Origin: Microcoleaceae cyanobacterium
GTDB taxonomy: Bacteria > Cyanobacteriota > Cyanobacteriia > Cyanobacteriales > Microcoleaceae
Direction of reading: 5' to 3'
DNA length: 17,348 nt
Assembly: GCA_051652765.1 (NCBI GenBank)
Contig: JBOFUV010000067.1
Location: forward strand, 1 to 17,348
Shown: piece by piece, positions 642 to 17,348 of the stretch
Numbering within the stretch: the stretch's first letter is position 1
Layout: each line of letters starts with the position of its first letter
Program-made: the position numbers and the translations under genes
Notes under the pieces: generated by a model
The model's database searches: none
What the model was told of the DNA's origin: nothing
Seen by the model: only the letters and a program-made list of their open reading frames with translations

Positions 642-1550
642 TTATTTTGAAGGTTTGCCGTCGCCATATTTTAAGAGCAGGGCGATCGCAATGCTGACCC
701 CCATAATCAACACCATGCTCAAAGCTGAACCAAAGCCCCAATTCTGGGTCGCCCCTAAAAATTGGTTGTAGATCAGCCGAGAAACCGTCATGCTAGAGGC
801 TCCCCCCAACAGTTCAGGATCGACAAAGTCTCCTAGAGCACTGATAAACACCAGTAATGATCCAGCCGCAATCCCTGGGAGCGTTTGAGGCACAGTGACC
901 TTCCAAAAGGTCTCTCTGGGTTTTGCTCCCAAGTCGGCTGAAGCTTCTAGTAGCCGTCGATCCAGCTTTTCCAGGGAGGCATACAAGACCGTGACTAAGT
1001 ATGGGAGGTAGCTGTACGTCATGCCAATAAATACTGCAGGGGTGCGGTTCAAGAGTTCTAAGGCAGGCAATCCCAACAAGGCCAAAAAAGAATTGAGTAC
1101 CCCAGTGGGTCGCAAAATGGTAATCCAGGCATAGGAACGAAGTAGAGAAGAAGTCCAGAGCGGTAGGACAAAGCCTAACAACAGCAAGTTGCGCCAGCGT
1201 TGCGGCGCAAGAATGGCAATCCAATAGGCAACCGGAAATCCCAGCAGTAAACAGAGCAGCGTTGTTCCAGTGGCAAAAAAGAGCGATCGCCCAATCACCT
1301 TCAAGTTAATCGGCTGAAACACCCGCAGATAGTTGTCAATGCCATCCGGAATCACCACATCTCCGGGGCGAATGTCCTTGACTAAACTCAGTTGAAAGAT
1401 GACGAGGGTCGGTAAAACTAGGAGCAGTAACAACCACAGTCCAGCAGGGCCCAGCATCACCAATGGGCCAATCAGCCTGGAGCCCAGGGGTTTGATACCC
1501 GGTTTGGGTTCGGACGGAACAGGAGGGGGAGGTTGGGTAGAGACAGCCAT
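642..1550 (-). CDS. potB: Spermidine/putrescine ABC transporter permease PotB
   Basis: Hydrophobic permease with LPLWTSSLLRSYAW, EAA motif LLEASADLGAKP and NWGFGSALS; operon context. Confidence 0.93.
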   Translation of the reverse strand: MAVSTQPPPPVPSEPKPGIKPLGSRLIGPLVMLGPAGLWLLLLLVLPTLVIFQLSLVKDIRPGDVVIPDGIDNYLRVFQPINLKVIGRSLFFATGTTLLCLLLGFPVAYWIAILAPQRWRNLLLLGFVLPLWTSSLLRSYAWITILRPTGVLNSFLALLGLPALELLNRTPAVFIGMTYSYLPYLVTVLYASLEKLDRRLLEASADLGAKPRETFWKVTVPQTLPGIAAGSLLVFISALGDFVDPELLGGASSMTVSRLIYNQFLGATQNWGFGSALSMVLIMGVSIAIALLLKYGDGKPSK

Positions 1551-1583
1551 TGATGATCTTTTTTTAACCTTATCTAGCTTGAT

Positions 1584-2714
1584 CTAACCGCTGGTCAACT
1601 TTGTCCAGTATCGCTCATACACTTCGCTAAATTTTCCCACGGGGGCGATTCCTTCGGATTTTTCAATCACAGACTCTGGTGGGAACAGGGTCGGATCATT
1701 CTGAATTTCCTTGGGTAGCTTTTTGAAAGCCAGTTGAGATGGGGTGGCAAAGCTCAACCGTTCGACAATTTGAGCGGCGATTTCGGGCCGGATCATAAAG
1801 TTAATCCATTGGTAAGCTGCCTCCGGATTGGGGGCAGACTTGGGAATGACTAAAGCATCTGTCCACAGGGAAGAACCACTGCGCGGAGTCACATACCGCA
1901 AGACTTCATTTTCCGGCATGACCTCTGCGGCATCAGACGAGTAACACATACACAGGGATAAATCCTCAACAATAATTTGGGGTCGCCAAGCATCGGTGGT
2001 AAAAGAGGCGATCGCGGGCTTGAGTTCTACTAATTTTTCATAGGCTGTTCGAACTTGGTTGAGATCGGTGGAGTTGTAGGAATAGCCCAGCATTCTCAAG
2101 GTCGCTCCCATAACTTCCCGGACATCATTCAGCAGGGTAAAGCGTTTGGCAATATCGGCTTGGTTATCCCAGAGATAATCCCAATCTTCCGGCAGTTGCT
2201 GCAAAATTCGGCTGTTGTACAGGAGTCCAGTCGTTCCCCAACTCACCGGAACACTATGACGATTACCAGGATCATAGGCTGGACTTTGAAACAGGGGAAA
2301 TAAGTCTTCTAAGCCCAGTAACAATGAGTGATCCAACTCCATCAACAGGCCCAGCTCTACCATTTTCTGCACCATGTAGTCTGATGGATAAATTATGCTG
2401 TAGGCACTGGCTCCTCCCGCCTGAATCCTTGCCAACATGGATTCATTGGAGTCAAATACATCAGCAATGACCTTCAAGCCAGTTTCTCGGGTAAAGAGAG
2501 TGATCAAATCTTGATCGACATAGCCTGCCCAAGTGTAGATGTAGAGAGTATCTGCGGCGACTTGAGTATTGGGTGTTGTTCTGACCTCCGCCAATGTCCA
2601 GCCACAGCTAGACAGCGTCGATGCAGTCAGTGCTGTGATAGAGGCTTGAAGGAACTGACGACGAGTTTGAGCGCTTGTTGTGTAAAGCCGTTTCCGTAAA
2701 GACGTTGGAGGCAC
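1584..2714 (-). CDS. potD: Polyamine ABC transporter substrate-binding protein PotD/PotF family, probable lipoprotein
   Basis: YTWAGY, FDSNESM, PSDYMV and WGTTGL motifs; N-terminal TRRQFL twin-arginine motif and LSSC lipobox; GTG start. Confidence 0.92.
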   Translation of the reverse strand: MPPTSLRKRLYTTSAQTRRQFLQASITALTASTLSSCGWTLAEVRTTPNTQVAADTLYIYTWAGYVDQDLITLFTRETGLKVIADVFDSNESMLARIQAGGASAYSIIYPSDYMVQKMVELGLLMELDHSLLLGLEDLFPLFQSPAYDPGNRHSVPVSWGTTGLLYNSRILQQLPEDWDYLWDNQADIAKRFTLLNDVREVMGATLRMLGYSYNSTDLNQVRTAYEKLVELKPAIASFTTDAWRPQIIVEDLSLCMCYSSDAAEVMPENEVLRYVTPRSGSSLWTDALVIPKSAPNPEAAYQWINFMIRPEIAAQIVERLSFATPSQLAFKKLPKEIQNDPTLFPPESVIEKSEGIAPVGKFSEVYERYWTKLTSG

Positions 2715-2825
2715 GAGTTACCTACTGCTGAAATTCGAATTCATGGAATTATGCTCATCAATACTGTACTTCATTGTTTCACAGAAATTTTCTGACCGGA
2801 TATTCCTACAAGAGAGTCACAGTCC

Positions 2826-3983
2826 TCACTCCCCCAGAACAGTACAATCTGTTGGCTGCCAACTGACATAGACGGCAACCTGTTGATCCGATAAGCTCTC
2901 TAATCCTTGGGTCTGTCGCACTGTGACTTGTTCCCCAGAGTGAAGCTGTACGAGGTATTGCACATGGGTTCCCAAGTACATGGAATTGATCAGGTGTCCG
3001 GAAAACCCGTTAACTGCTTCTGCGGGAGGGTGGCAACTGAGGGAAATTTTCTCGGGGCGAACACTGACAACGACTCTTGTACCATTGCCAATCCCAGCGT
3101 AAGACAATTTCTTGCGGCTGAGTTCTGTAGGGCGAGATTCAATTTTCAGCCCCGTATCTGTTGTGATCAACTGGCTGACTGGATCAACGTGTTCAACTCG
3201 GCCCCTGAAAAAATTGGTATCTCCAATAAAGTCGGCAATAAAGGGGGTTTGGGGATATTCATAAATATCACTGGGGGAGCCGATTTGTTCAATCCGGCCC
3301 TCATTCATGACTGCAATCCGATCGGACATGCTCATGGCTTCTTCTTGGTCGTGGGTGACCATGATGAAGGTCATGCCCAAATTGTGATGCAGATTGGTTA
3401 ACTCTAGCTGCATCTGCTTGCGAAGCTTCAGATCTAAGGCTCCAAGGGGCTCATCCAGTAACAACACGGCTGGACGATTCACCAAGGCCCGTGCTAAGGC
3501 GACCCGCTGCTGTTGTCCCCCGGACAGTTGATAAGGAAATTTGTGAGCAAATGCCTCTAGCTTTGCCAGTTGAAGCACCTCCCGCACTCTTTGTTCAATT
3601 TCAGCTTTTCCCTGGCGTTTAATCCGTAAGCCAAAGGCGATATTATCCCAGACATTGAGATGATTAAACAGGGCATAGCTCTGAAAAACCGTATTGACCG
3701 GGCGCTGATAAGCAGGAACCTGATTCACTGACTTTCCCCGAATCAGCACCTCTCCGCCCGTGGGAATCTCGAATCCTGAAATTAGCCTCAAGGTTGTTGT
3801 TTTGCCACATCCCGAAGGGCCTAATATACTGAAAAACTCTCCCTGACGAATCTCAAGATCAACTCCCCGAACAGCCGTCTCTCCATTAAAGACCTTGAAG
3901 ACTTTGCGGAGTTCAATATCTAATGGCATTACGTTAGTCTCAGTTGCACCTTGGCCTGATGTTGCTGTCTGGAGCATAGCCAC
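2826..3983 (-). CDS. potA: Polyamine ABC transporter ATP-binding protein PotA
   Basis: Walker A GPSGCGKT, signature LSGGQQQR, Walker B LLLDEPLGALD, H-loop VTHDQEEA, C-terminal TOBE-like region; start may be GTG 3983 or ATG 3977. Confidence 0.95.
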   Translation of the reverse strand: MAMLQTATSGQGATETNVMPLDIELRKVFKVFNGETAVRGVDLEIRQGEFFSILGPSGCGKTTTLRLISGFEIPTGGEVLIRGKSVNQVPAYQRPVNTVFQSYALFNHLNVWDNIAFGLRIKRQGKAEIEQRVREVLQLAKLEAFAHKFPYQLSGGQQQRVALARALVNRPAVLLLDEPLGALDLKLRKQMQLELTNLHHNLGMTFIMVTHDQEEAMSMSDRIAVMNEGRIEQIGSPSDIYEYPQTPFIADFIGDTNFFRGRVEHVDPVSQLITTDTGLKIESRPTELSRKKLSYAGIGNGTRVVVSVRPEKISLSCHPPAEAVNGFSGHLINSMYLGTHVQYLVQLHSGEQVTVRQTQGLESLSDQQVAVYVSWQPTDCTVLGE

Positions 3984-4142: not shown

Positions 4143-4961
4143 ATGAATTGGCAAATGGATGCACTGGAAGTTCTTCAAGAAACCAGTCGAACGTTTTACA
4201 TTCCGATCAGCCGTTTGCCTCCAATTCTTCAAAGGGCAGTTGCATCGGCCTACCTTTGTATGCGTGCCATTGATGAAATTGAAGACCATGCTGAACTGGA
4301 TAATTCAACAAAGGTCAAACTGCTACAGCATATCAGCCTGAGTTTGCAGGGAAGTGTTTCTGGCCCCAACTTGGAGGGGACATTGTCTGGTTTCTTTTCC
4401 CATCACCCACTCTTGCCAGAGGTCACTCTGCGAGTTGGGGAATGGGCACAATTGGCTCCAGCCAGTATTGCTCCCCGGATCTGGGATGCAACAGCCGCCA
4501 TGGCCGATCGGATGGCGTACTGGGCCGATCGGAACTGGCGAATTGATTCAGAGTTGACCCTGGATCAATACACGTTTAGTGTGGCTGGGGCCGTGGGATT
4601 ATTGCTCTCTGACCTGTGGGCTTGGTACGATGGGACTCAAACGAACCGAACCAACGCAATTGGTTTTGGACGGGGGTTGCAGGCTGTTAATATTCTGCGT
4701 AACCACCGAGAAGACTTGAAACGGGGGGTTGATTTTTTCCCCCCAAGTTGGACTTCTGAGCAGATGAATAGCTATGCTCATCGCAATCTACTTTTGGCAG
4801 ATGCCTATGCGGAAGCCTTACCCAACGGCCCTGCTCTGGATTTTTGCCGCATCCCTCTTGCTCTAGCCCATGCTACGTTGAGCGTTTTGGCAGACGGTCA
4901 AGACAAGTTGAGTCGGGGGGCTGTCGTCGAGCTAATTGAGCGGGTTTGTAGTGGCACTTAG
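4143..4961 (+). CDS. Squalene/phytoene synthase family protein (cyanobacterial squalene synthase-like)
   Basis: TSRTFYIPI, YLCMRAIDEIEDH (first Asp-rich motif), YTFSVAGAVG and FGRGLQAVNILRN; resembles the Synechocystis Sll0513-type squalene synthase. Confidence 0.85.
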   Translation: MNWQMDALEVLQETSRTFYIPISRLPPILQRAVASAYLCMRAIDEIEDHAELDNSTKVKLLQHISLSLQGSVSGPNLEGTLSGFFSHHPLLPEVTLRVGEWAQLAPASIAPRIWDATAAMADRMAYWADRNWRIDSELTLDQYTFSVAGAVGLLLSDLWAWYDGTQTNRTNAIGFGRGLQAVNILRNHREDLKRGVDFFPPSWTSEQMNSYAHRNLLLADAYAEALPNGPALDFCRIPLALAHATLSVLADGQDKLSRGAVVELIERVCSGT

Positions 4962-4969
4962 GTTAAGCC

Positions 4970-6919
4970 TTAGGATTCAATCCTCTTTTCGAGTTCAGCA
5001 AAAGGAGTTAACCAAGCAACATCATAGGGTTGGAGGGCGATCGCCAAGGATTCATTCCTTGGTTTTTCACTAGCTCTTTCACTGACCAGGGCTGTCCAGC
5101 CCCTACGACCCACTAAGTCGTACCACTGAAGTGCAAATATTCCCAGTTGATCTAGAGAAATCTCAACGGCACAGGGACGGCTAGTCACATTTGTTAAGGT
5201 CAATATGTGTTGATCGCCTTGAGGAGACGTTCGCAAAACGGCAAAGATTTCTGGAGCAAGCTTCAAAATTTTCTGCGCCCCGTTGGGATGAAAGGCGGTT
5301 TGTTGGACTCGAATGTCTAGCAACCGCCCCAGCTTTCGCAACAGATAGGCCAATTTAGAATCTGGATCATTGAGGTCTTCCAAAAGACGGCGCTCATCAA
5401 TCACCCGGCGGTTGATGTCGCGTTTCGATTTAGTTCTCAAGACAGCATCCACATCGTTGCGGCTACCAATTAGACCATGGAAGTAAATCCCAGGAACCCC
5501 CCGGAGCACCAACGCAATACTACGGGAGGCTACAAACCGCTTGACCTGGAAGGTAATATCCTCACCGTTATTGTCCATATTCAAGGCACTGAACCAGGTG
5601 GTATTGATTTCATAGGGTTCCTCCTGACCGCCTTCTCCCGTTTTATAGGAGATCAGTGCCCCATGTTCTCTGGCATTTTGGATAATGAACTCAATTTCCT
5701 CCTCTGGCAAAATGGTCTTGACCCCCATGAGCCCTACTCCATCATGGGTATCTAACATATTGAAAAAGGTTGTCGTTGAGGAAAGAAACTGCAAATCCTT
5801 CGCCCAATCAGACAAAACGGTTGAGTCTGATTTGTAGAAGGTATAGAGCACCAAAGGGGGCAGGGCAAAGTTGTAAACCATTTGAGCTTCGTCGTTGCCG
5901 TTGCCAAAGTAGGAAACGTTCTGCTCGTGGGGCACGTTTGTTTCGGTAATCAGGGCAACGGTAGGAGCCACGATTTTTAGGATATCCCGAAATAGTTTGA
6001 TCACCTCATGGGTTTGTTCCAGGTTGGCACAGGGAGTGCCGGGTTCTTCCCAGAGATAGGTGACAGCATCCAGACGAACCATGTTGGCTCCCCGACGAAC
6101 ATAGAGCAACAGGGTTTCTAACACCCCGAGGAGCACTTTAGGATTTTTATAGTTCAGGTCAATTTGGTCAGGGGAAAAGGTTGTCCAGACCCAGATAGGG
6201 CCATTAATCGATTGAAATTGGGTCAGAACATCGGAGGTGCGAGGACGAACAATAATTTGCCGTTGTTCGGGGGTAAGTTCATCAGGGGAATGATAAACGG
6301 TAAAAAAGTCCTTGTAGTCTGGGTTCCCGTTCAGCATCCGCTGGAATAGAGGACTGTGGGAAGAAACATGGTTAAACACCCCATCAAACATCAGTTGATA
6401 GTAGTTGCCCATCTCTTCAATATCTTTCCAAGATCCCAGGTTCGGATCAACGCTGTCAAAGTCAATCACCGAAAAGCCTCGATCTGAGGAATAGGGAAAA
6501 AAGGGCAAAATGTGCAGGGTGTTAATACTGAGTCCCAAATGGTGATTGAGAAACTGCGCTAGGGTTGCCAAAGGCGATCGCCCTTGGCCTTTGAGTAAAT
6601 CTCCATAGGTAATCAGAATCAAATCCCACTCAGTAAAGCGATTGGCCGGGTCAAACTCTTTCTCTGCGTCAACTAGGGCTTGAGGTTTGTGGGCAGAATG
6701 CACTTTTAGAATGCGTTTCAGTTCTGGCATGTAGACTTTGGCTTGTTCATCCCCGTAGAGAAAGCACAACCGTTGAAAGATCAGAGCTTGAGCCTCCGGT
6801 GCAATTTCTAGGGGCGATCGCGTGTAGTCCGGAGCGTCATCGTAGCGCACCCGATCTCGTCTCATCGATTTCTGCAATGATTCGCCCTGATTTGAGGTTC
6901 CAGTCGTCATCGTTTCCAT
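4970..6919 (-). CDS. GH13_18 sugar phosphorylase, probably glucosylglycerate phosphorylase (YcjM-like)
   Basis: HILPFFPYSSDRGF, WTTFSPDQIDLN, nucleophile motif RLDAV, acid/base motif ITETNVPH, THDG and PYEIN. Confidence 0.85.
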   Translation of the reverse strand: METMTTGTSNQGESLQKSMRRDRVRYDDAPDYTRSPLEIAPEAQALIFQRLCFLYGDEQAKVYMPELKRILKVHSAHKPQALVDAEKEFDPANRFTEWDLILITYGDLLKGQGRSPLATLAQFLNHHLGLSINTLHILPFFPYSSDRGFSVIDFDSVDPNLGSWKDIEEMGNYYQLMFDGVFNHVSSHSPLFQRMLNGNPDYKDFFTVYHSPDELTPEQRQIIVRPRTSDVLTQFQSINGPIWVWTTFSPDQIDLNYKNPKVLLGVLETLLLYVRRGANMVRLDAVTYLWEEPGTPCANLEQTHEVIKLFRDILKIVAPTVALITETNVPHEQNVSYFGNGNDEAQMVYNFALPPLVLYTFYKSDSTVLSDWAKDLQFLSSTTTFFNMLDTHDGVGLMGVKTILPEEEIEFIIQNAREHGALISYKTGEGGQEEPYEINTTWFSALNMDNNGEDITFQVKRFVASRSIALVLRGVPGIYFHGLIGSRNDVDAVLRTKSKRDINRRVIDERRLLEDLNDPDSKLAYLLRKLGRLLDIRVQQTAFHPNGAQKILKLAPEIFAVLRTSPQGDQHILTLTNVTSRPCAVEISLDQLGIFALQWYDLVGRRGWTALVSERASEKPRNESLAIALQPYDVAWLTPFAELEKRIES

Positions 6920-11027: not shown

Positions 11028-12299
11028 ATGCTAAATCTGAATCTGGATGACACCCAGTTAACAAAAGACGAATATGAGCGCTACTCGCGCCATCTCATCC
11101 TGCCGGAGGTTGGGCTGGAGGGACAAAAGCGCCTGAAAGCAGCGAAAGTGTTGTGCATTGGGACAGGTGGCCTGGGTTCTCCTCTATTGCTTTATCTGGC
11201 CGCTGCCGGGGTCGGACGCATTGGAATCGTAGACTTCGACGTTGTAGACAGTTCCAACTTGCAACGTCAGGTGATTCATGGCACTTCTTGGGTGAACAAA
11301 CCCAAGATTGAGTCTGCCAAAAGTCGCATCCATGAGATCAACCCCGCTTGCCAAGTCGATCTGTATAATACCCGACTGAGTTCTGAAAATGCACTGGCAA
11401 TTCTTGAACCCTATGACATTGTTGTAGATGGGACAGACAACTTCCCAACCCGATATTTGGTCAACGATGCTTGCGTATTGCTGAATAAGCCCAACGTTTA
11501 CGGGTCTATTTTCCGGTTCGAGGGACAAGCAACCGTGTTCAACTACAAAGGTGGTTGGCAGCGACCAGAGGGTTGGAGCCGTTTAACTCCAGAGGCCCAA
11601 AAGAATTTACGGGACAAGAAGCAGGATTGGGTCTATGACGAACAGGCGATCGCCCCCAACTATCGAGATCTCTATCCCGATCCGCCGCCTCCTGGAATGG
11701 TTCCCTCCTGCGCCGAAGGGGGTGTATTGGGAATTCTCCCTGGATTAATTGGGGTGATTCAGGCCACTGAAACCGTTAAAATTATCCTAGGGAAGGGCCG
11801 TAGTTTGAGTGGTCGATTGTTGCTGTACAACTCTCTGGATATGACCTTCCGGGAGCTGAAGTTGCAGCCCAATCCGGAACGACCTGTGATTGAAAAGTTA
11901 ATTGACTACGAGCAGTTCTGTGGCATTCCCCAAGCTAGGGCAGAGGAGGAGAAAAAACAGATGGAAATAGCTGAAATGACGGTACAGGAGTTGAAGGCAC
12001 TCCTCGATAGCGGGGCAGATGATTTTGTCCTGATTGATGTTCGCAATCCCAATGAATCCGAAATTGCCCAAATTCCAGGGGCTGTGTTGGTTCCTCTCCC
12101 AGAGATTGAACAGGGGGAAGGGGTGCAAAAAGTGAAGGCAATGCTGAATGGCCACCGTTTGATTGCCCATTGTAAGATGGGTGGGCGCTCAGCAAAAGCC
12201 CTGGGAATTCTCAAGGACGCTGGAATTGAGGGGATTAACGTCAAAGGTGGAATCACGGCTTGGAGTCAGGAGGTCGATCCGTCAGTTCCCCAGTATTAG
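11028..12299 (+). CDS. moeB: Molybdopterin-synthase adenylyltransferase MoeB with C-terminal rhodanese domain (MoeZ/MoeBR type)
   Basis: RYSRHL, GTGGLGSP, SNLQRQ, DGTDNFPTRY, SCAEGGVLG; rhodanese active-site HCKMGGRS. Confidence 0.95.
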   Translation: MLNLNLDDTQLTKDEYERYSRHLILPEVGLEGQKRLKAAKVLCIGTGGLGSPLLLYLAAAGVGRIGIVDFDVVDSSNLQRQVIHGTSWVNKPKIESAKSRIHEINPACQVDLYNTRLSSENALAILEPYDIVVDGTDNFPTRYLVNDACVLLNKPNVYGSIFRFEGQATVFNYKGGWQRPEGWSRLTPEAQKNLRDKKQDWVYDEQAIAPNYRDLYPDPPPPGMVPSCAEGGVLGILPGLIGVIQATETVKIILGKGRSLSGRLLLYNSLDMTFRELKLQPNPERPVIEKLIDYEQFCGIPQARAEEEKKQMEIAEMTVQELKALLDSGADDFVLIDVRNPNESEIAQIPGAVLVPLPEIEQGEGVQKVKAMLNGHRLIAHCKMGGRSAKALGILKDAGIEGINVKGGITAWSQEVDPSVPQY

Positions 12300-12463
12300 A
12301 ACAGTATTAATTTAGGACAGTATTAATCCGGTAATCCTCATTGCTCTTCCAAAATCTCCCTGGTCAAGGGGGATTTTGAATTGACTATTTTGAATTGACT
12401 TCTCCCTTGCTTTTGGGAAAACTTGTTTTTGGGAAGAATTGACATGGATTTTTGACAAGATTT

Positions 12464-12491
12464 TTTACAAATCAATCGGATCTGGTATAAG
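12464..12491 (+). promoter_or_regulatory. Candidate sigma70-type promoter for argH
   Basis: TTTACA-N16-TATAAG with an extended -10 TG, ~35 bp upstream of the argH ATG. Confidence 0.4.
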
Positions 12492-12525
12492 TGACAAATA
12501 ACACGTGACAAACAGTAGCTAGGGA

Positions 12526-13920
12526 ATGACACCAAAAACCTGGAGTGAACGGTTTGAAATAGCTCTGCATCCAGCGATCGCAGCGTTCAACGCTAGTATT
12601 GGCTTTGACATTGAACTGATTGAATATGACCTCACAGGCTCAATTGCTCATGCCAAAATGTTAGCTAAAGCAGACATTATTTCCCCTGAGGAGGGAGAGC
12701 AACTGGTCTTCGGCCTAGAACAAATTCGCCAAGAGTATCGTCAGGGCACGTTTCAACCCGGAATTGAGGCTGAGGATGTTCATTTTGCAGTAGAACGGCG
12801 GTTAATTGAAATCATCGGCGCTGTTGGCAAGAAACTACACACTGGGCGATCGCGCAATGATCAAGTCGGCACGGATACTCGGCTGTACCTGAGAGATCAG
12901 ATTCAGCAGATCCAAACTCAGCTACTCGACTTTCAACGGGCGCTGTTAGTCTTGGCTGAGGCCCACATTGAAACCTTAATTCCTGGCTATACCCATCTCC
13001 AACGGGCTCAACCCCTAAGCTTGGCCCATCATCTATTGGCCTATGGGGAAATGGTACAGCGAGATTGGGAACGACTGGCCGATGTCTACAAACGGGTTGA
13101 TATTTCGCCCTTAGGGTGTGGAGCCCTTGCTGGTACTACCTTTCCGATTGATCGCCACTACAGCGCTGAACTGTTGGGGTTTGATCGTATTTATGCCAAC
13201 AGCCTGGATGGAGTCAGTGACCGGGATTGGGCGATTGAATTTCTCTGTGCCGCGAGCTTGATCATGGTACATTTGAGCCGTTTGGCCGAAGAAGTGATTT
13301 TATGGGCCTCTCAAGAGTTTGGATTTATCACCCTGAACGATAGTTGTTCAACGGGGTCAAGTATCATGCCCCAAAAGAAAAACCCCGATGTTCCTGAACT
13401 GGTGAGAGGCAAAACCGGGCGGGTATTTGGTCATCTGCAAGCCCTGTTGGTGATGATGAAAGCGTTGCCCTTAGCCTACAACAAAGATTTACAGGAAGAC
13501 AAAGAAGCATTGTTTGACAGTGTAAAAACGGTGAAAGGTTGCCTAGAGGCAATGACAATTTTACTCCAGGAGGGTTTGGAATTTCGTCCCCAAAGATTGG
13601 CCGAGGCAGTGAATGAGGACTTTTCCAATGCCACAGATGTGGCTGATTATCTGGCCACCAAAGGAGTGCCATTCCGAGAAGCTTATAACTTGGTGGGAAA
13701 GGTGGTCAAAACCTGCTTAGAACAGAGAAAACTTTTAAAAGATCTGACGCTGGAAGAATGGCAAGCGCTCCATCCCGCTTTTGCTCAAGACATCTATGCT
13801 GCCATCACGCCACAACAGGTTGTGGCAGCAAGAAACAGTTATGGGGGTACAGGATTTGAACAGGTCAGATCGGCTCTGAAAACTGCTCAAGATCGCCTAA
13901 AACAGTTATCACAGCCTTAA
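12526..13920 (+). CDS. argH: Argininosuccinate lyase
   Basis: [22 protein letters not shown], fumarate-lyase signature [22 protein letters not shown]. Confidence 0.98.
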
Positions 13921-13948
13921 CCCAATTCACACTTCAAATCGACGCACC

Positions 13949-14380
13949 CTAACAACAGTAGGTCAAAAGATTTGCTGGATATAACGTTAGTTCTCCAGAC
14001 TGAAACCGAGACAACGGCATCCAGAGAGCGGTTTTTTGGCGATCGCCCTCTTGGAACGTCACTTGTTCGGATTTATACAAGGTTTGATCTTCAAAGTCAC
14101 AGCGATAAAGTTGAATAATTTCGTGACCGGGTTTTCCATCGTATACAAACACACTTTCTAGACAGCCGAGATACTGAATCTGAGTTAAGCCCGCGTCTAA
14201 CTCCTCCAAAAACTCCCGTTTCAGCGCCTCCTGGCTCAGTTCCCCAAACTCAACTCCACCTCCTAGAGGCCGATAAAATGTCTCTTGCTGAGTTGGATCG
14301 TAACCTTCGGATAAAAACAAGTGATTCTCCCGCTGAATTAAGCCCAACGCCAGTACCCGAATTTTTTTTGATTTAGGCAT
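13949..14380 (-). CDS. NUDIX hydrolase
   Basis: Nudix box GGGVEFGELSQEALKREFLEEL; the start at ATG 14380 (MPKSKK) avoids overlap with CRR6. Confidence 0.9.
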   Translation of the reverse strand: MPKSKKIRVLALGLIQRENHLFLSEGYDPTQQETFYRPLGGGVEFGELSQEALKREFLEELDAGLTQIQYLGCLESVFVYDGKPGHEIIQLYRCDFEDQTLYKSEQVTFQEGDRQKTALWMPLSRFQSGELTLYPANLLTYCC

Positions 14381-14390
14381 ACTGTTAAAG

Positions 14391-14870
14391 CTAAGGTTGG
14401 GCAATCAGCGCAAAAAATTCATCTTCCAGATCATATCCTAGCATTTGAGCCATTGACTTCAGCCGTGATTGACTTGGGAGTTGCTGGGACTTCATCCAGG
14501 TTGTCAGGGCAAATATCTTATGCATTAAAAAAATTTCCAAGGCTTCCGGGTTGTATTGAATGCCTTCGGTGCGATGAAACTGATGAGGAACTAACATCGC
14601 TGCATAGCGAACCAGTTCACCTGATTTCCAGTCTAGCAAAAAGGGCAACCAGGGATAACAGGTATCTAAACGCACAAACCACAGCCGAATCTCTGGAATC
14701 TCCGAGAGTTCACGAGGATCTTGAGGATCGCGGGGGTAGTCGATTTCAAGCTGGATTTGTTGTTCGTAAGTTGCAATCTCTCCATTCTCCAACCATTGCT
14801 CAATCAGCCCCTGTACTGGAGAGAGATCAAGGGTGTTGAGGGTTGTAACATCAAGTTTGACCGTTGGCAT
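14391..14870 (-). CDS. crr6: CRR6 family (DUF1817) NDH-1 assembly/NdhI maturation factor
   Basis: DPRELSEIPEIRLWFVRLD..YPWLPFLLDW..GEL.RYAAMLVPHQF...EGIQYNPEALEIF. Confidence 0.9.
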   Translation of the reverse strand: MPTVKLDVTTLNTLDLSPVQGLIEQWLENGEIATYEQQIQLEIDYPRDPQDPRELSEIPEIRLWFVRLDTCYPWLPFLLDWKSGELVRYAAMLVPHQFHRTEGIQYNPEALEIFLMHKIFALTTWMKSQQLPSQSRLKSMAQMLGYDLEDEFFALIAQP

Positions 14871-15051
14871 AAAGGCTGAATCGTGCTGAATCTGTAACTC
14901 ACCTCCGCTATTATACGCTCTGGCTATCAGTCCCTATAGAATCCATTTGGTATCTATCTAAGCCATAGCAAGTCTTTTGAGCATCAACCGGACAAAGCAA
15001 AGATTAACTTTATCATTTCTGACGGTTGAGTTTACAGATGAAACAGTGATT

Positions 15052-15589
15052 GATCAATGCGGGTTTGATATTGAGATCAACGCGGGTTTAGAGAAAGATC
15101 AAGGCGGGTTTGGTACTGAGATCAACGCGGGTTTAGTAAAAGATTAAGGCGGGTTTGGTGTGAGATCAAGGCGGGTTTGGTGTGAGATCAACGCGGGTTT
15201 GGTATGAGATCAACGCGGGTTTGGTATTGAGATCAACGCGGGTTTGTTATGAGATCAACGCGGGTTTGGTATGAGATCAACGCGGGTTTGGTATGAGATC
15301 AACGCGGGTTTAATGTGAGATCAACGCGGGTTTGGTACTGAGATCAACGCGGGTTTGATGTGAGATCAACGCGGGTTTAGTATGAGATCAAGGCGGGTTT
15401 GGTGTGAGATCAACGCGGGTTTAATGTGAGATCAACCCAGGTGCGAAGCACGATCAACTTGATCTGAGTGTGAGATCAACGGGCAAGTACTCTGCGATCA
15501 ACTTGATCTGAGTGTGAGATCAACGGGCAAGTGCTCTGCGATCAAGTTGATCTGGGTGTGAGATCAATGGGGGTTTGATGAACGATCAA
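15052..15589. repeat. Non-coding tandem array, 22-23 bp period, 24 units plus a terminal GATCAA
   Basis: Units 1-17 (15052-15429) have consensus GATCAACGCGGGTTT plus a 7-8 nt variable tail ending mostly in TGA. Units 18-24 keep GATCAA at an exact 22-bp spacing but diverge and include a 44-bp dimer repeat. Confidence 0.97.
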
Positions 15590-15634
15590 TCTGAACTTAA
15601 GCGTAACCCACCACGGATTTATTCAATAATCAGG

Positions 15635-15718
15635 CTAGAAATAACTTCTTCCATCATAGTGCTTGAGTTGAATCACATCGCGTACCTGATCCAGCAGCTT
15701 TTTGAGACGTTGTTCCAT
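15635..15718 (-). pseudogene. intI: Truncated integron integrase (IntI N-terminal SAM-like domain remnant)
   Basis: Hand translation: MEQRLKKLLDQVRDVIQLKHY-DGRSYF*. The first 21 aa match the IntI N-terminal pattern KLLDQVR..IR.KHYS, then similarity stops. Divergent from the attC-bearing cassettes. Confidence 0.8.
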
Positions 15719-15731
15719 TGTGGGATAGACG

Positions 15732-15870
15732 GAAAGTTTCAGAATAATCCCGAAATAGGCTGGCATATCCAGAAAGTTTTAGTATAATCGTATTATCAGG
15801 GTAGATTATATGGAAAGTTTCAGGGTAATCCTCCCAGAATTGGTGACTATAAAGAAAGTTTCAACATAAT
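15732..15870 (+). repeat. Four direct repeats GAAAGTTTYARNRTAAT at 40/41/41-bp spacing in the intI-attI region
   Basis: 15732 GAAAGTTTCAGAATAAT; 15772 GAAAGTTTTAGTATAAT; 15813 GAAAGTTTCAGGGTAAT; 15854 GAAAGTTTCAACATAAT. Confidence 0.85.
15760..15788 (+). promoter_or_regulatory. Candidate cassette promoter Pc
   Basis: CTGGCA-N17-TATAAT pointing toward attI and the cassettes. Confidence 0.45.
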
Positions 15871-15882
15871 AACTAGTTATCT
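15864..15882 (+). mobile_element. Putative attI recombination site (crossover G|TT at 15876/15877)
   Basis: ACATAAT-AACTA-GTTATCT: degenerate L box, 5-bp spacer, R box. GTTATCT is the exact reverse complement of the R'' (AGATAAC) of the first attC. It lies ~160 bp upstream of the intI start. Confidence 0.72.
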
Positions 15883-16085
15883 TGCTAGCGTACCACAGTT
15901 TCCCTGTGGGGTGGAATCGAAAGGTTGCTGACTCTGTTGAGAGAGGGTTTGCATCATCTGCGCTGGCGTTCTGCTGAGTGAGAGAACGTCGGCAATACCC
16001 AAACAAGATAACAAATCACTGCACCCGACCGACCGCAAGTTATTGGATTAATTCTGAAGCTGTTAGCAGCGGGTGAGTTCAACCG
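15877..16085 (+). mobile_element. Integron cassette 1, 209 bp, apparently gene-less
   Basis: Bounded by the attI G|TT and the attC1 G|TT; only ~130 bp precede attC and no convincing ORF is present. Confidence 0.65.
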
Positions 16086-16091
16086 TTAGGC
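16006..16091 (+). mobile_element. attC site 1 (86 bp)
   Basis: R'' AGATAAC, 5-nt spacer AAATC, L'' ACT(G)CACC-CG(A)C ... GCGGGTGAGT L', 6-nt spacer TCAACC, R' GTTAGGC; two unpaired bases in canonical positions. Confidence 0.9.
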
Positions 16092-16107
16092 AAAAATAGG
16101 GGAATTT

Positions 16108-16662
16108 ATGCTTCCACAAACCATCGAAGAACTGAACGCGTTGCGGGATGAGTGCAAATCAATGATCACAAAGCGCGCAAGTCTATCTGCCGGGGCTGCG
16201 ATAATTCCTATTCCAGGAGTTGACATCAGTGCAGACGTTACTTTGCTCCTCGAAATGATTCCTACCATCAATCGAAAATTCGGCCTTACACCTGAACAGA
16301 TTAACGATCTCGACCCTCAGATCAAAAAAATCATTCTCGTCGCCATCACAAACATCGGCAGCGGATTGATCGGCAGAACGGTGACAAAGCAATTAATCAT
16401 GCAGGTGCTGAAGCGTGTAGGAATTCGAGTGACTACAAAATCTGTTGCCAAATTCATTCCGATTCTTGGCCAAGCCTTAGCTGCATCAATCAGCTTTGGT
16501 GCCATGAAAATGGTTGGCGACTCTCATGTTGATGACTGTTACGAAGTGGCCAAAAAAGTGATTACTGCGAGAATTATTAATCAACTAGAAGCGATTAAAC
16601 CGGGCACCACAGCCTACACCGAAGCTCAACAGTTATTGCAGTTTGCCCGTAAGCGATTGTAG
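16108..16662 (+). CDS. DUF697-like protein carried in integron cassette 2 (16086..16874)
   Basis: ATG ~22 nt after the attC1 crossover with an AGGGG RBS; AGAAIIPIPGVD...INRKFGL...KFIPILGQ motifs typical of DUF697/YcjF-like small proteins. Confidence 0.75.
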   Translation: MLPQTIEELNALRDECKSMITKRASLSAGAAIIPIPGVDISADVTLLLEMIPTINRKFGLTPEQINDLDPQIKKIILVAITNIGSGLIGRTVTKQLIMQVLKRVGIRVTTKSVAKFIPILGQALAASISFGAMKMVGDSHVDDCYEVAKKVITARIINQLEAIKPGTTAYTEAQQLLQFARKRL

Positions 16663-16795
16663 GAAGGGTGGGGATAGAGAAATAGAGAATGTTGGCGGAG
16701 TTTAAATTGAAAGGGCTATGCTACGTTGAAAGTCGGTTTGTCGGGTTCGCGCTGGCAGTCCTGCTGAGTAAGAGAACGTCGGCAATCCCCAAACA

Positions 16796-16880
16796 AGATA
16801 ACAAATCACTGCACCCGACCGTTCCAGGGTAGTCGATGAGTTGCAAAGATATTGGCGGTGGGTGAGTTCAACCGTTAGCT
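16796..16880 (+). mobile_element. attC site 2 (85 bp)
   Basis: AGATAAC-AAATC-ACT(G)CACCC(G)ACCG ... CGGTGGGTGAGT-TCAACC-GTTAGCT; arms nearly identical to attC1, with a different central loop. Confidence 0.9.
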
Positions 16881-17211
16881 GTCTTCCTTGATTCGAGGTT
16901 CCTATTACCGAGCGGTTATCTGTTGGTGGCAGAGGTTGAGTTGGCGAAGGTTGAGTCAGTGGGGGCGATCGCAGGAGTGGCGCAAAGTCTCAGCAGCTTT
17001 GGGGTGAGTGTCAGAGGTTGAGTATTGAGGGCGATCGGTGGTGGGTTTCAAGGTTCAGAGCGGTTTGCTGTAGCGGGTGCGATCGCTTTTGTAGCGAGAG
17101 GTTGAGTTCATTGAGGTTGTTGCGCGTCAGCCAGCTAATAAATCAGTGCAGCGGACGGTCGGAAGCCGCTGGTGCTGAGTTCGAGGTACTTGCAGCCGCT
17201 GACCTCAGCCG
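16875..17211 (+). mobile_element. Integron cassette 3, 337 bp, apparently gene-less and G/T-skewed
   Basis: Starts (G)TTAGCT; its attC R'' is AGCTAAT, the reverse complement except for one base; no credible ORF within the boundaries. Confidence 0.65.
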
Positions 17212-17217
17212 TTCGAC
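17133..17217 (+). mobile_element. attC site 3, degenerate (85 bp)
   Basis: AGCTAAT (AAC>AAT)-AAATC-AGT(G)CAGCGG(A)C ... GCCGCTGACC-TCAGCC-GTTCGAC; same 5/6-nt spacer geometry as attC1 and attC2. Confidence 0.78.
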
Positions 17218-17348
17218 CGCTAGGTTATCCGTGGGGCGGCAGCATGAAATTTATCTGTTAGAGTTCAGCCTGAAGTTAACTTGAGGCTGTTGATAAGACA
17301 GTGTTTCGAGGTTACTGGCGGGGCGATCGCGCAGTTAAGCTGACTAAT

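Follow-up and report, generated by a model that had tools for sequence, protein, structure and literature searches.

The 17,348-nucleotide stretch analysed here (the window) is the entire contig C67 of a 5.04 Mb draft genome of a Microcoleaceae cyanobacterium, G000. Beyond reasonable doubt, its right end carries the parts of a real integron platform: a 5' stub of the integrase gene intI, a promoter region, attI (a site of recombination) and an array of cassettes with attC sites. By itself, the locus is an ordinary integron remnant. What is new is the family of platforms to which it belongs, multiplied and differently loaded within one genome, together with the retention of the 5' end of intI across the order. 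On balance, the window probably holds one copy of a multiplied, integrase-less platform, loaded in trans by the integrase IntI and carrying its own cassette array. The features involved are listed below by position; ORF indicates an open reading frame, IS an insertion sequence.

14935..15014, plus strand: end of an IS5-family (DDE_Tnp_1) element, consisting of TA, the left terminal inverted repeat and the first ~80 bp; left boundary of the platform copy.
15015..15051, plus strand: linker, common to the platforms on C45, C50 and C101, longer there and partly deleted in the window.
15052..15590, plus strand: tandem array of a 22-bp GATC-containing repeat, with 17.3 regular copies to 15436 (Tandem Repeats Finder, TRF), followed by variant 22/44-bp units.
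15591..15655, plus strand: the repeat element's conserved tail, ~65 bp, joined to codon 21 of intI; the junction is identical in 12 copies.
15656..15718, minus strand: 5' stub of intI, codons 1-21 of an integron integrase, with the ATG at 15718.
15719..15875, plus strand: promoter and attI upstream region, with imperfect palindromes and two sigma70-like sites.
15864..15882, plus strand: attI core, ACATAAT-AACTA-G/TTATCT, with a 5-nt spacer and the predicted crossover, marked by the slash, at 15876/15877.
15877..16085, plus strand: cassette 1, 209 bp, ORF-less.
16006..16091, plus strand: attC1, 86 bp; R'' AGATAAC, L'' ACTGCACC, L' GGTGAGT, R' GTTAGGC.
16086..16874, plus strand: cassette 2, a chimera of an ORF, a host-type gene end and an ORF-less-type tail with attC.
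16796..16880, plus strand: attC2, 85 bp; R'' AGATAAC, R' GTTAGCT.
16875..17211, plus strand: cassette 3, 337 bp, with no convincing ORF.
17133..17217, plus strand: attC3, 85 bp; R'' AGCTAAT, R' GTTCGAC.
17212..17348, plus strand: start of cassette 4, which exists in two copies that the assembly has merged.

According to the usual description, a genome has one integron platform or a few, and these are not self-mobile. A profile search of G000 finds 22 attI-like cores; homology among these copies ends at a GTT-type triplet, and the cassettes beyond it differ. In 12 of the 22 platforms the repeat tail is fused to intI at exactly codon 21, at unrelated loci, and the left neighbours of the platforms are unrelated host genes. 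The first cassettes of the 12 junction copies are also unrelated, being at most 61% alike over the 130 nt after attI. The remaining platforms are interrupted elsewhere in intI (at about codons 24, 33, 54, 103 and 117) or retain no stub. The codon-21 junction is found on both attI/promoter types present in G000, and both types also occur in the same-genus genome G002. Among sequencing runs, one DNA run (X1) contains a small share of this sequence, and no RNA run is listed as containing any. Two short contigs were obtained from X1, one of which independently carries the tail-stub junction, differing at 4 of 182 nt.

Two cassettes are duplicated, with copies that begin at G/TT and are preceded by unlike sequences: one on C67 and C45 (130 of 130 positions identical), the other on C146 and C132 (294 of 298); the C146 cassette holds the first position at the attI of a junction copy. 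The tails of the junction copies, in contrast, have a mean identity of 85% (11 copies analysed, C146 being left out for its changed start). The identity of 98.5-100% among cassette copies, compared to 85% among tails, suggests that the movement of cassettes postdates the truncation, and that IntI has therefore been used in trans. The four-gamete test, applied to tail and stub, is failed by 191 of the 378 pairs of informative sites, while in clonal simulations (n=295) failures average 0.07 and reach 0.33 at most; the incompatibility grows with distance (p=0.004). The platform copies are recombination mosaics.

The nature of the stub is established by comparison with the intact, 321-aa IntI of G017, a genome of the same family; this protein reaches 470 bits with TIGR02249, the model for integron integrases, whose cut-off is 265. 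Of the 21 codons, 15 encode identical residues (E 5e-8), so that the assignment of this peptide to the IntI N-terminus, proposed by the sequence-only reading, holds. The last six codons of the 27-aa ORF that includes it (to 15635) derive from the tail of the repeat element, not from intI. At the window locus the stub gives no match to TIGR02249 or PF13495; longer paralogous remnants in G000 do match TIGR02249. The integrase itself was said to be lost and, in the draft assembly of G000, no intI sequence past codon 117 is found, TIGR02249, PF13495 and tblastn returning 5' pieces only. Seven other tyrosine recombinases are detected in the genome by PF00589, none of them at a platform. Retention of the stub as a selected peptide is not favoured: two of the 11 junction copies carry a stop at codon 11.

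Within 15723-15871, an imperfect palindrome around AAAGTTT occurs four times, at a period of 40-41 bp. The four share the form GATTA-N5-AAAGTTT-N5-TAATC, and related units are seen in G002 and G017; they may represent arrayed IntI half-sites or repeated promoters. Two sigma70-like sites (10/12 and 9/12; shuffled sequence yields about 1) face the cassettes, at 15760-15788 and 15843-15870. The latter overlaps the attI L box and is likely to be the promoter Pc; its equivalent in G017 is a 12/12 match, TTGACA-N16-TATAAT. The attI-like site anticipated next to the stub is located at 15864-15882, with crossover predicted after G15876.

Three attC sites had been recognised in the sequence-only reading, from their length, boxes, spacers and extrahelical bases, and geometry and covariation agree with this. 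A geometric scan of the contig returns exactly attC1-3; in all three the spacers measure 5 and 6 nt and the fourth base of L'' is bulged; when 15601-17348 is shuffled, 495 of 500 sequences contain no such site and 5 contain one. In an alignment of 27 attC sites, from the window and eight relatives (nine genomes), 96.3% of the cells pair, as against 22-45% in slid controls, and both sides have changed in 58 cells, a result that none of 500 shuffles reaches; since the aligned sites were picked with our own profile, the test leans towards structure. This profile, obtained by iterated nhmmer searches, detects 88 sites in G000, none in the reversed genome, and further sites in relatives. Of the 88, 41 can be linked in series to an attI of their own contig; many of the rest sit close to where a contig begins. 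No Rfam model matches the window at gathering score. On the bottom strand, every one of the 27 aligned sites has C as its first extrahelical base, and lengths range from 84 to 89 bp across families of the order; in class 1 attC sites this base is usually a G.

The start of a cassette inserted as a circle by IntI is expected to complement its own R''. Complementarity is 7/7 for cassette 1 and 6/7 for cassette 3, as originally noticed, and 4/7 for cassette 2, which lacks the signature because it is a chimera. That this is a footprint of IntI-mediated insertion is borne out on a larger scale: among 63 cassettes bounded on one contig, the start heptamer shows 1.13 mismatches to its own R'' at positions 4-7, compared to 2.03 after shuffling (0 of 10,000 shuffles). 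The fourth cassette, thought to begin at 17212, is also found: the window and contig C45 end in the same 139 nt, and the stretch with which both C35 and C50 open terminates in an attC with R'' GTCGAAC, the complement of the start GTTCGAC. The two parts presumably join into one cassette.

Of the family that includes cassette 1, G000 has 10 or more cassette starts, and 2 further ones interrupted by an IS. ORF-less cassettes with promoter activity are reported (PMC6557892; 10.1101/2023.11.21.568050); a promoter scan found none inside cassette 1. In cassette 2, the first ~151 aa of the ORF at 16108-16662, a DUF697-like product with a Pfam score below the cut-off, are 87% identical to a Methylomonas protein, indicating that the arrays take in foreign genes and provide a route for cross-phylum gain in cyanobacteria. 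The ORF continues, in frame, into the ~30 final codons of a host-type gene (86% nucleotide identity to C35:62438-62536), and the 3' part of the cassette, attC included, is the tail of a cassette of the ORF-less type. This fusion (16108-16880) is possibly a snapshot of the formation of a new cassette.

To the left, the platform is built of dispersed repeats. The 22-bp array is a dispersed family in G000: of 23 candidate arrays one is false (C17:26k), leaving about 22. Arrays without any platform occur at C63, C109, C134, C145 and C49, and one array is present in G002. The repeat tail is found without intI at C74:26.9k and C116:6.8k. Pattern scans of public metagenome and genome contigs gave no match to the tail, the junction or the 22-bp array, although these collections may lack close relatives. 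In a family-wide DNA search, with five candidates scored per genome, 8 of 144 genomes match and, among the matches listed, the tail occurs only in G000. The fusion of intI to the 22-bp array is seen only in G000 and in the one short contig of run X1; G002 contains both the array and platforms, but separate.

The IS end at the left boundary is also found at C45 and C101, each time with other flanks. It corresponds to the 3' end of the transposase in relatives (Pfam PF01609), a DDE element which we take to be of the IS5 type. Its target is a TA, as seen from an empty site in the ORF-less cassette. An inverted right IS end closes the arrays at C50 and C68; both ends are present at C50, where the left one is eroded, and at C101/C68, if the two contigs are joined. 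TA is found outside the IS ends at platforms but, as a 2-bp duplication, it is uninformative as a target-site duplication. IS5-derived MITEs (transposable elements of the miniature inverted-repeat type) of ~270-285 bp, with TAGAACCCATTTGG ends, are present elsewhere in G000 (C68:1706-1972, C134:25174-25459, C35:63885-64155); one such MITE sits at a TA within an ORF-less cassette.

The rest of the window looks like host DNA. The product of crr6 (PF08847 match) indicates a cyanobacterial host, and the identities of the crr6 and NUDIX products are supported by Pfam. The intervals 642-3983, 4143-6919 and 11028-14870 contain what are presumably ordinary host genes, for a polyamine ABC transporter, a phytoene/squalene synthase-like protein, a sucrose phosphorylase-like protein, MoeB and ArgH.

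Both same-genus genomes, G001 and G002, lack a platform beside crr6, and none of the nine G002 platforms has a left-flank gene orthologous to that of a G000 platform. Between G000 and G002, platform pieces are 69-92% identical and cassettes 89-93%, compared to about 67-80% for most flanking genes; this DNA may thus have been exchanged, or be younger than the species split. The same cassettes are also found at different platforms in the two genomes (L094 and L089 in G002, C64 and C74 in G000), for example with 89% nucleotide identity over 1.1 kb, above that of host genes. In G002 several platforms show variable truncations, and one full-length intI is interrupted by a single stop.

These observations may be accounted for as follows. 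A single deletion would have fused the tail of the 22-bp element to codon 21 of intI, leaving Pc and attI intact. The resulting stub-attI unit would then spread on small mobile ends, in the case of the window copy an IS5-type end served by a transposase in trans, and also by ectopic recombination between copies. IntI, supplied in trans by an intact copy that has since disappeared, by a plasmid in transit or by a copy missing from the assembly, would load each attI by attC x attI recombination and copy cassettes between arrays. The outcome would be a distributed integron, with many expression and landing sites, whose resident enzyme is not found in the assembly. There is good reason to believe that the platform spread after its truncation, and loading of attI by IntI in trans appears just as credible; for the IS5 route of the window copy, the evidence is evenly balanced. 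None of the three putative footprints of the spread, namely IS ends, ectopic recombination and cassette capture, is decisive. Candidate sources of a trans-acting IntI are the full-length intI of G002, despite its stop, the intact integrases of G063, G109 and G017, and a cyanobacterial plasmid integrase. The integrase regions of G063 and G109 are 92-97% identical to that of G017, being nearly the same across families. Plasmid pB of Kovacikia (L154:4995-5957) encodes an annotated integron integrase of full length, and its first-cassette position is occupied by a DNA cytosine methyltransferase gene. In viral contigs, where IntI relatives reach 58% identity at most, no close donor is found.

Several observations weigh against this account. 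The intact IS5 left end is present in only three platforms (window, C45 and C101), the other junction copies being eroded or different, and no intact transposase is found in the G000 assembly. The join of C101 to C68 has no overlap support, and the window array, which runs off the contig, is not traceable to an intact right IS end. Comparison of four G000 loci with G001 and G002 resolved no empty site, the flanking genes being non-adjacent and synteny too broken. A homologue of the right flank of C17 lies 3.6 kb from a G002 platform, a near-coincidence. As the draft has a shortest contig of 1,614 bp, an intact intI flanked by repeats could be absent from the assembly. Stub variation is mainly synonymous (pN/pS, the ratio of nonsynonymous to synonymous polymorphism, 0.22), as would be expected if the stub alleles came from several once-functional intI genes. 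As to the attC sites themselves, the folding energy of the whole sites is no better than that of shuffled sequences (bottom-strand z 0.64, -0.12 and -0.33), so that geometry and covariation were used instead as evidence for them.

The synonymous variation of the stub, which is common to non-junction copies too, also fits a different history, in which many loci received a complete integron, by copying or acquisition, loaded it in cis and lost intI later, the codon-21 junction spreading by gene conversion. The mosaicism of the platforms, the breakpoints at codons ~24, 33, 54, 103 and 117, and the presence in G002 of variable truncations beside a full-length intI with a single stop would all be compatible with it. 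Conversion, however, requires a homologous repeat array already in place to the left of each intI, and the closeness of cassette copies (98.5-100%), set against that of the junction tails (85%), makes the traffic look younger than the junction; we regard this history as unlikely. Less probable still is that IntI itself moves the platform, an attC recombining at a secondary GTT on the intI side, so that a platform enclosed between two attC sites travels as a giant cassette. At one G002 locus (L093:2614-2902, C63 of that genome), the R' crossover of an attC falls exactly on a GTT in the antisense strand of intI, near codon 70. Platforms lie just downstream of a same-strand attC in G016 (tandem units), G088, G029, G017, and at C116 and C138 of G000 (2 of its 22 platforms with the attC on the same strand, 0 of 22 on the opposite one), and GWT sites in the genome are described as targets of attC insertion (Loot et al., bioRxiv 10.1101/2022.09.11.507474). 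No attC is present upstream of the window copy, though. Only one clear, clean GTT crossover emerges among the distinct left junctions aligned; from the same alignment, truncation at a GTT at birth was rejected as a general rule for platforms. The G016 units, moreover, carry by eye a release-factor gene fragment, and plain tandem duplication also fits them.

The interpretation given by the sequence-only reading was in part correct: integron architecture, intI remnant, attI, attC sites, insertion footprints and probable use in trans all stand, while no support was obtained for one sedentary chromosomal integron that decayed where it lay, next to crr6. That reading also overlooked the 22-bp array and the IS5 end on the left side of the unit, as well as the chimeric nature of cassette 2. 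The core gene gives the locus a chromosomal place, and the order intI-attI-cassettes is canonical; there are, on the other side, 21 further attI cores, 11 of them with the same breakpoint, and the left boundary is an IS end. Absence of intI from this locus in relatives had been named beforehand among the findings that would refute the reading, and neither G001 nor G002 has a platform there. Decay in place is largely refuted, and we consider it very improbable. As to an assembly artefact, the draft has many contig breaks inside arrays; but the platform copies differ by ~10-15% and lie inside contigs with distinct flanks, the tail-stub junction recurs in run X1, and dispersed intI fragments are also present in a second species and in near-complete genomes, so that the chance of an artefact is negligible.

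Loss of the greater part of intI, with retention of its 5' end, extends beyond this genus. Over 121 genomes of the order, IntI residues 1-60 are detected in 54 (40 at 60% identity or above) and residues 187-246 in 16, both being present in 15; weak N-terminal matches in this count may correspond to other integrases. Where both regions occur, the middle one is conserved as well as the N-terminal one or better, so that divergence is not the cause of the difference. Several loci with the IntI N-terminus only are found in each of the near-complete genomes G022, G029 and G088, and at 6 of 13 such N-terminal fragment loci an attC in the correct orientation lies no more than ~3 kb downstream. In G016, six intI copies or fragments lie within ~50 kb (L101-L103, 4.445-4.503 Mb); several of these lie in tandem units that begin at an attC crossover and, by eye, include a release-factor-like gene fragment and toxin-antitoxin-like gene pairs.

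With three attC sites, and no match to TIGR02249 or PF13495 at the locus, the window array would probably be filed as a CALIN, a group of attC sites without an integron integrase; it probably works like an enzyme-less integron. CALINs are cassette arrays with no functional intI nearby, for which use of IntI in trans is possible (Cury et al. 2016, PMC4889954); the arrays of G000 are similar in this, and differ in that they retain attI, promoter region and 5' intI stub, with 22 platforms in one genome. In the same survey most genomes have one integrase and 36 have more, and pseudogenes of the IntI C-terminal domain were detected close to just 15 of the 279 CALINs; four possible routes are listed by which CALINs may have arisen. 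A 5' stub, presumably, would escape a search for C-terminal-domain pseudogenes. Strains with four complete integrons are described in PMC9024848, according to which drafts inflate CALIN counts. Published work also covers cyanobacterial integrons and provides an attC model specific to them (PMC8618304, PMC8352920).

Mobilisation of a defective integron by non-autonomous, IS-like ends, with transposase in trans, has a precedent in class 1 integrons flanked by MITEs or, for a defective one, by integron mobilization units (IMUs; PMC3575428). Those are single plasmid or chromosome insertions with identical flanking MITEs, unlike the present case of a native cyanobacterial platform at many loci, with IS ends in some only and a minisatellite carried along. 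In the sedentary integrons of Xanthomonas (bioRxiv 10.1101/2025.06.18.660453) intI is likewise truncated or lost while arrays persist, but at one ancestral locus (ilvD) and with arrays reportedly more stable after inactivation; in G000 the loci are not common to congeners and traffic is recent. Cassettes scattered by IntI at genomic GWT sites, through attG insertion, and the resulting single attC sites lacking integron-integrase (SALINs) are also comparable (Loot et al., bioRxiv 10.1101/2022.09.11.507474); in that work genomic insertion of attI1 is not above background, so that attG insertion alone does not explain scattered attI platforms. Off-target rearrangements by IntI are known (PMC10127599). 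In the literature covered, mostly open texts without supplements, no description was found of multi-copy stub-attI platforms or of the 22-bp repeat, and the tables of Cury and of Neron may list such genomes.

The presence in one genome of 22 attI sites, 12 of them probably cloned from one broken copy and yet differently loaded, suggests that the landing pad of an integron can spread apart from its enzyme. The excess of N-terminal over internal IntI matches in the 121 genomes suggests that stub-headed arrays are common in the order, and that they may be an overlooked source of CALINs. Tentatively, it may be proposed that in some cyanobacteria the attI-promoter platform multiplies as a non-autonomous mobile unit, through IS ends, ectopic recombination and capture in the manner of a giant cassette, is kept without an integrase and is reloaded by a visiting IntI in trans; such stub-headed platforms would explain many CALINs in the order. 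The origin of CALINs becomes testable in this way, with attI and the 5' intI stub as a marker in place of the C-terminal domain.

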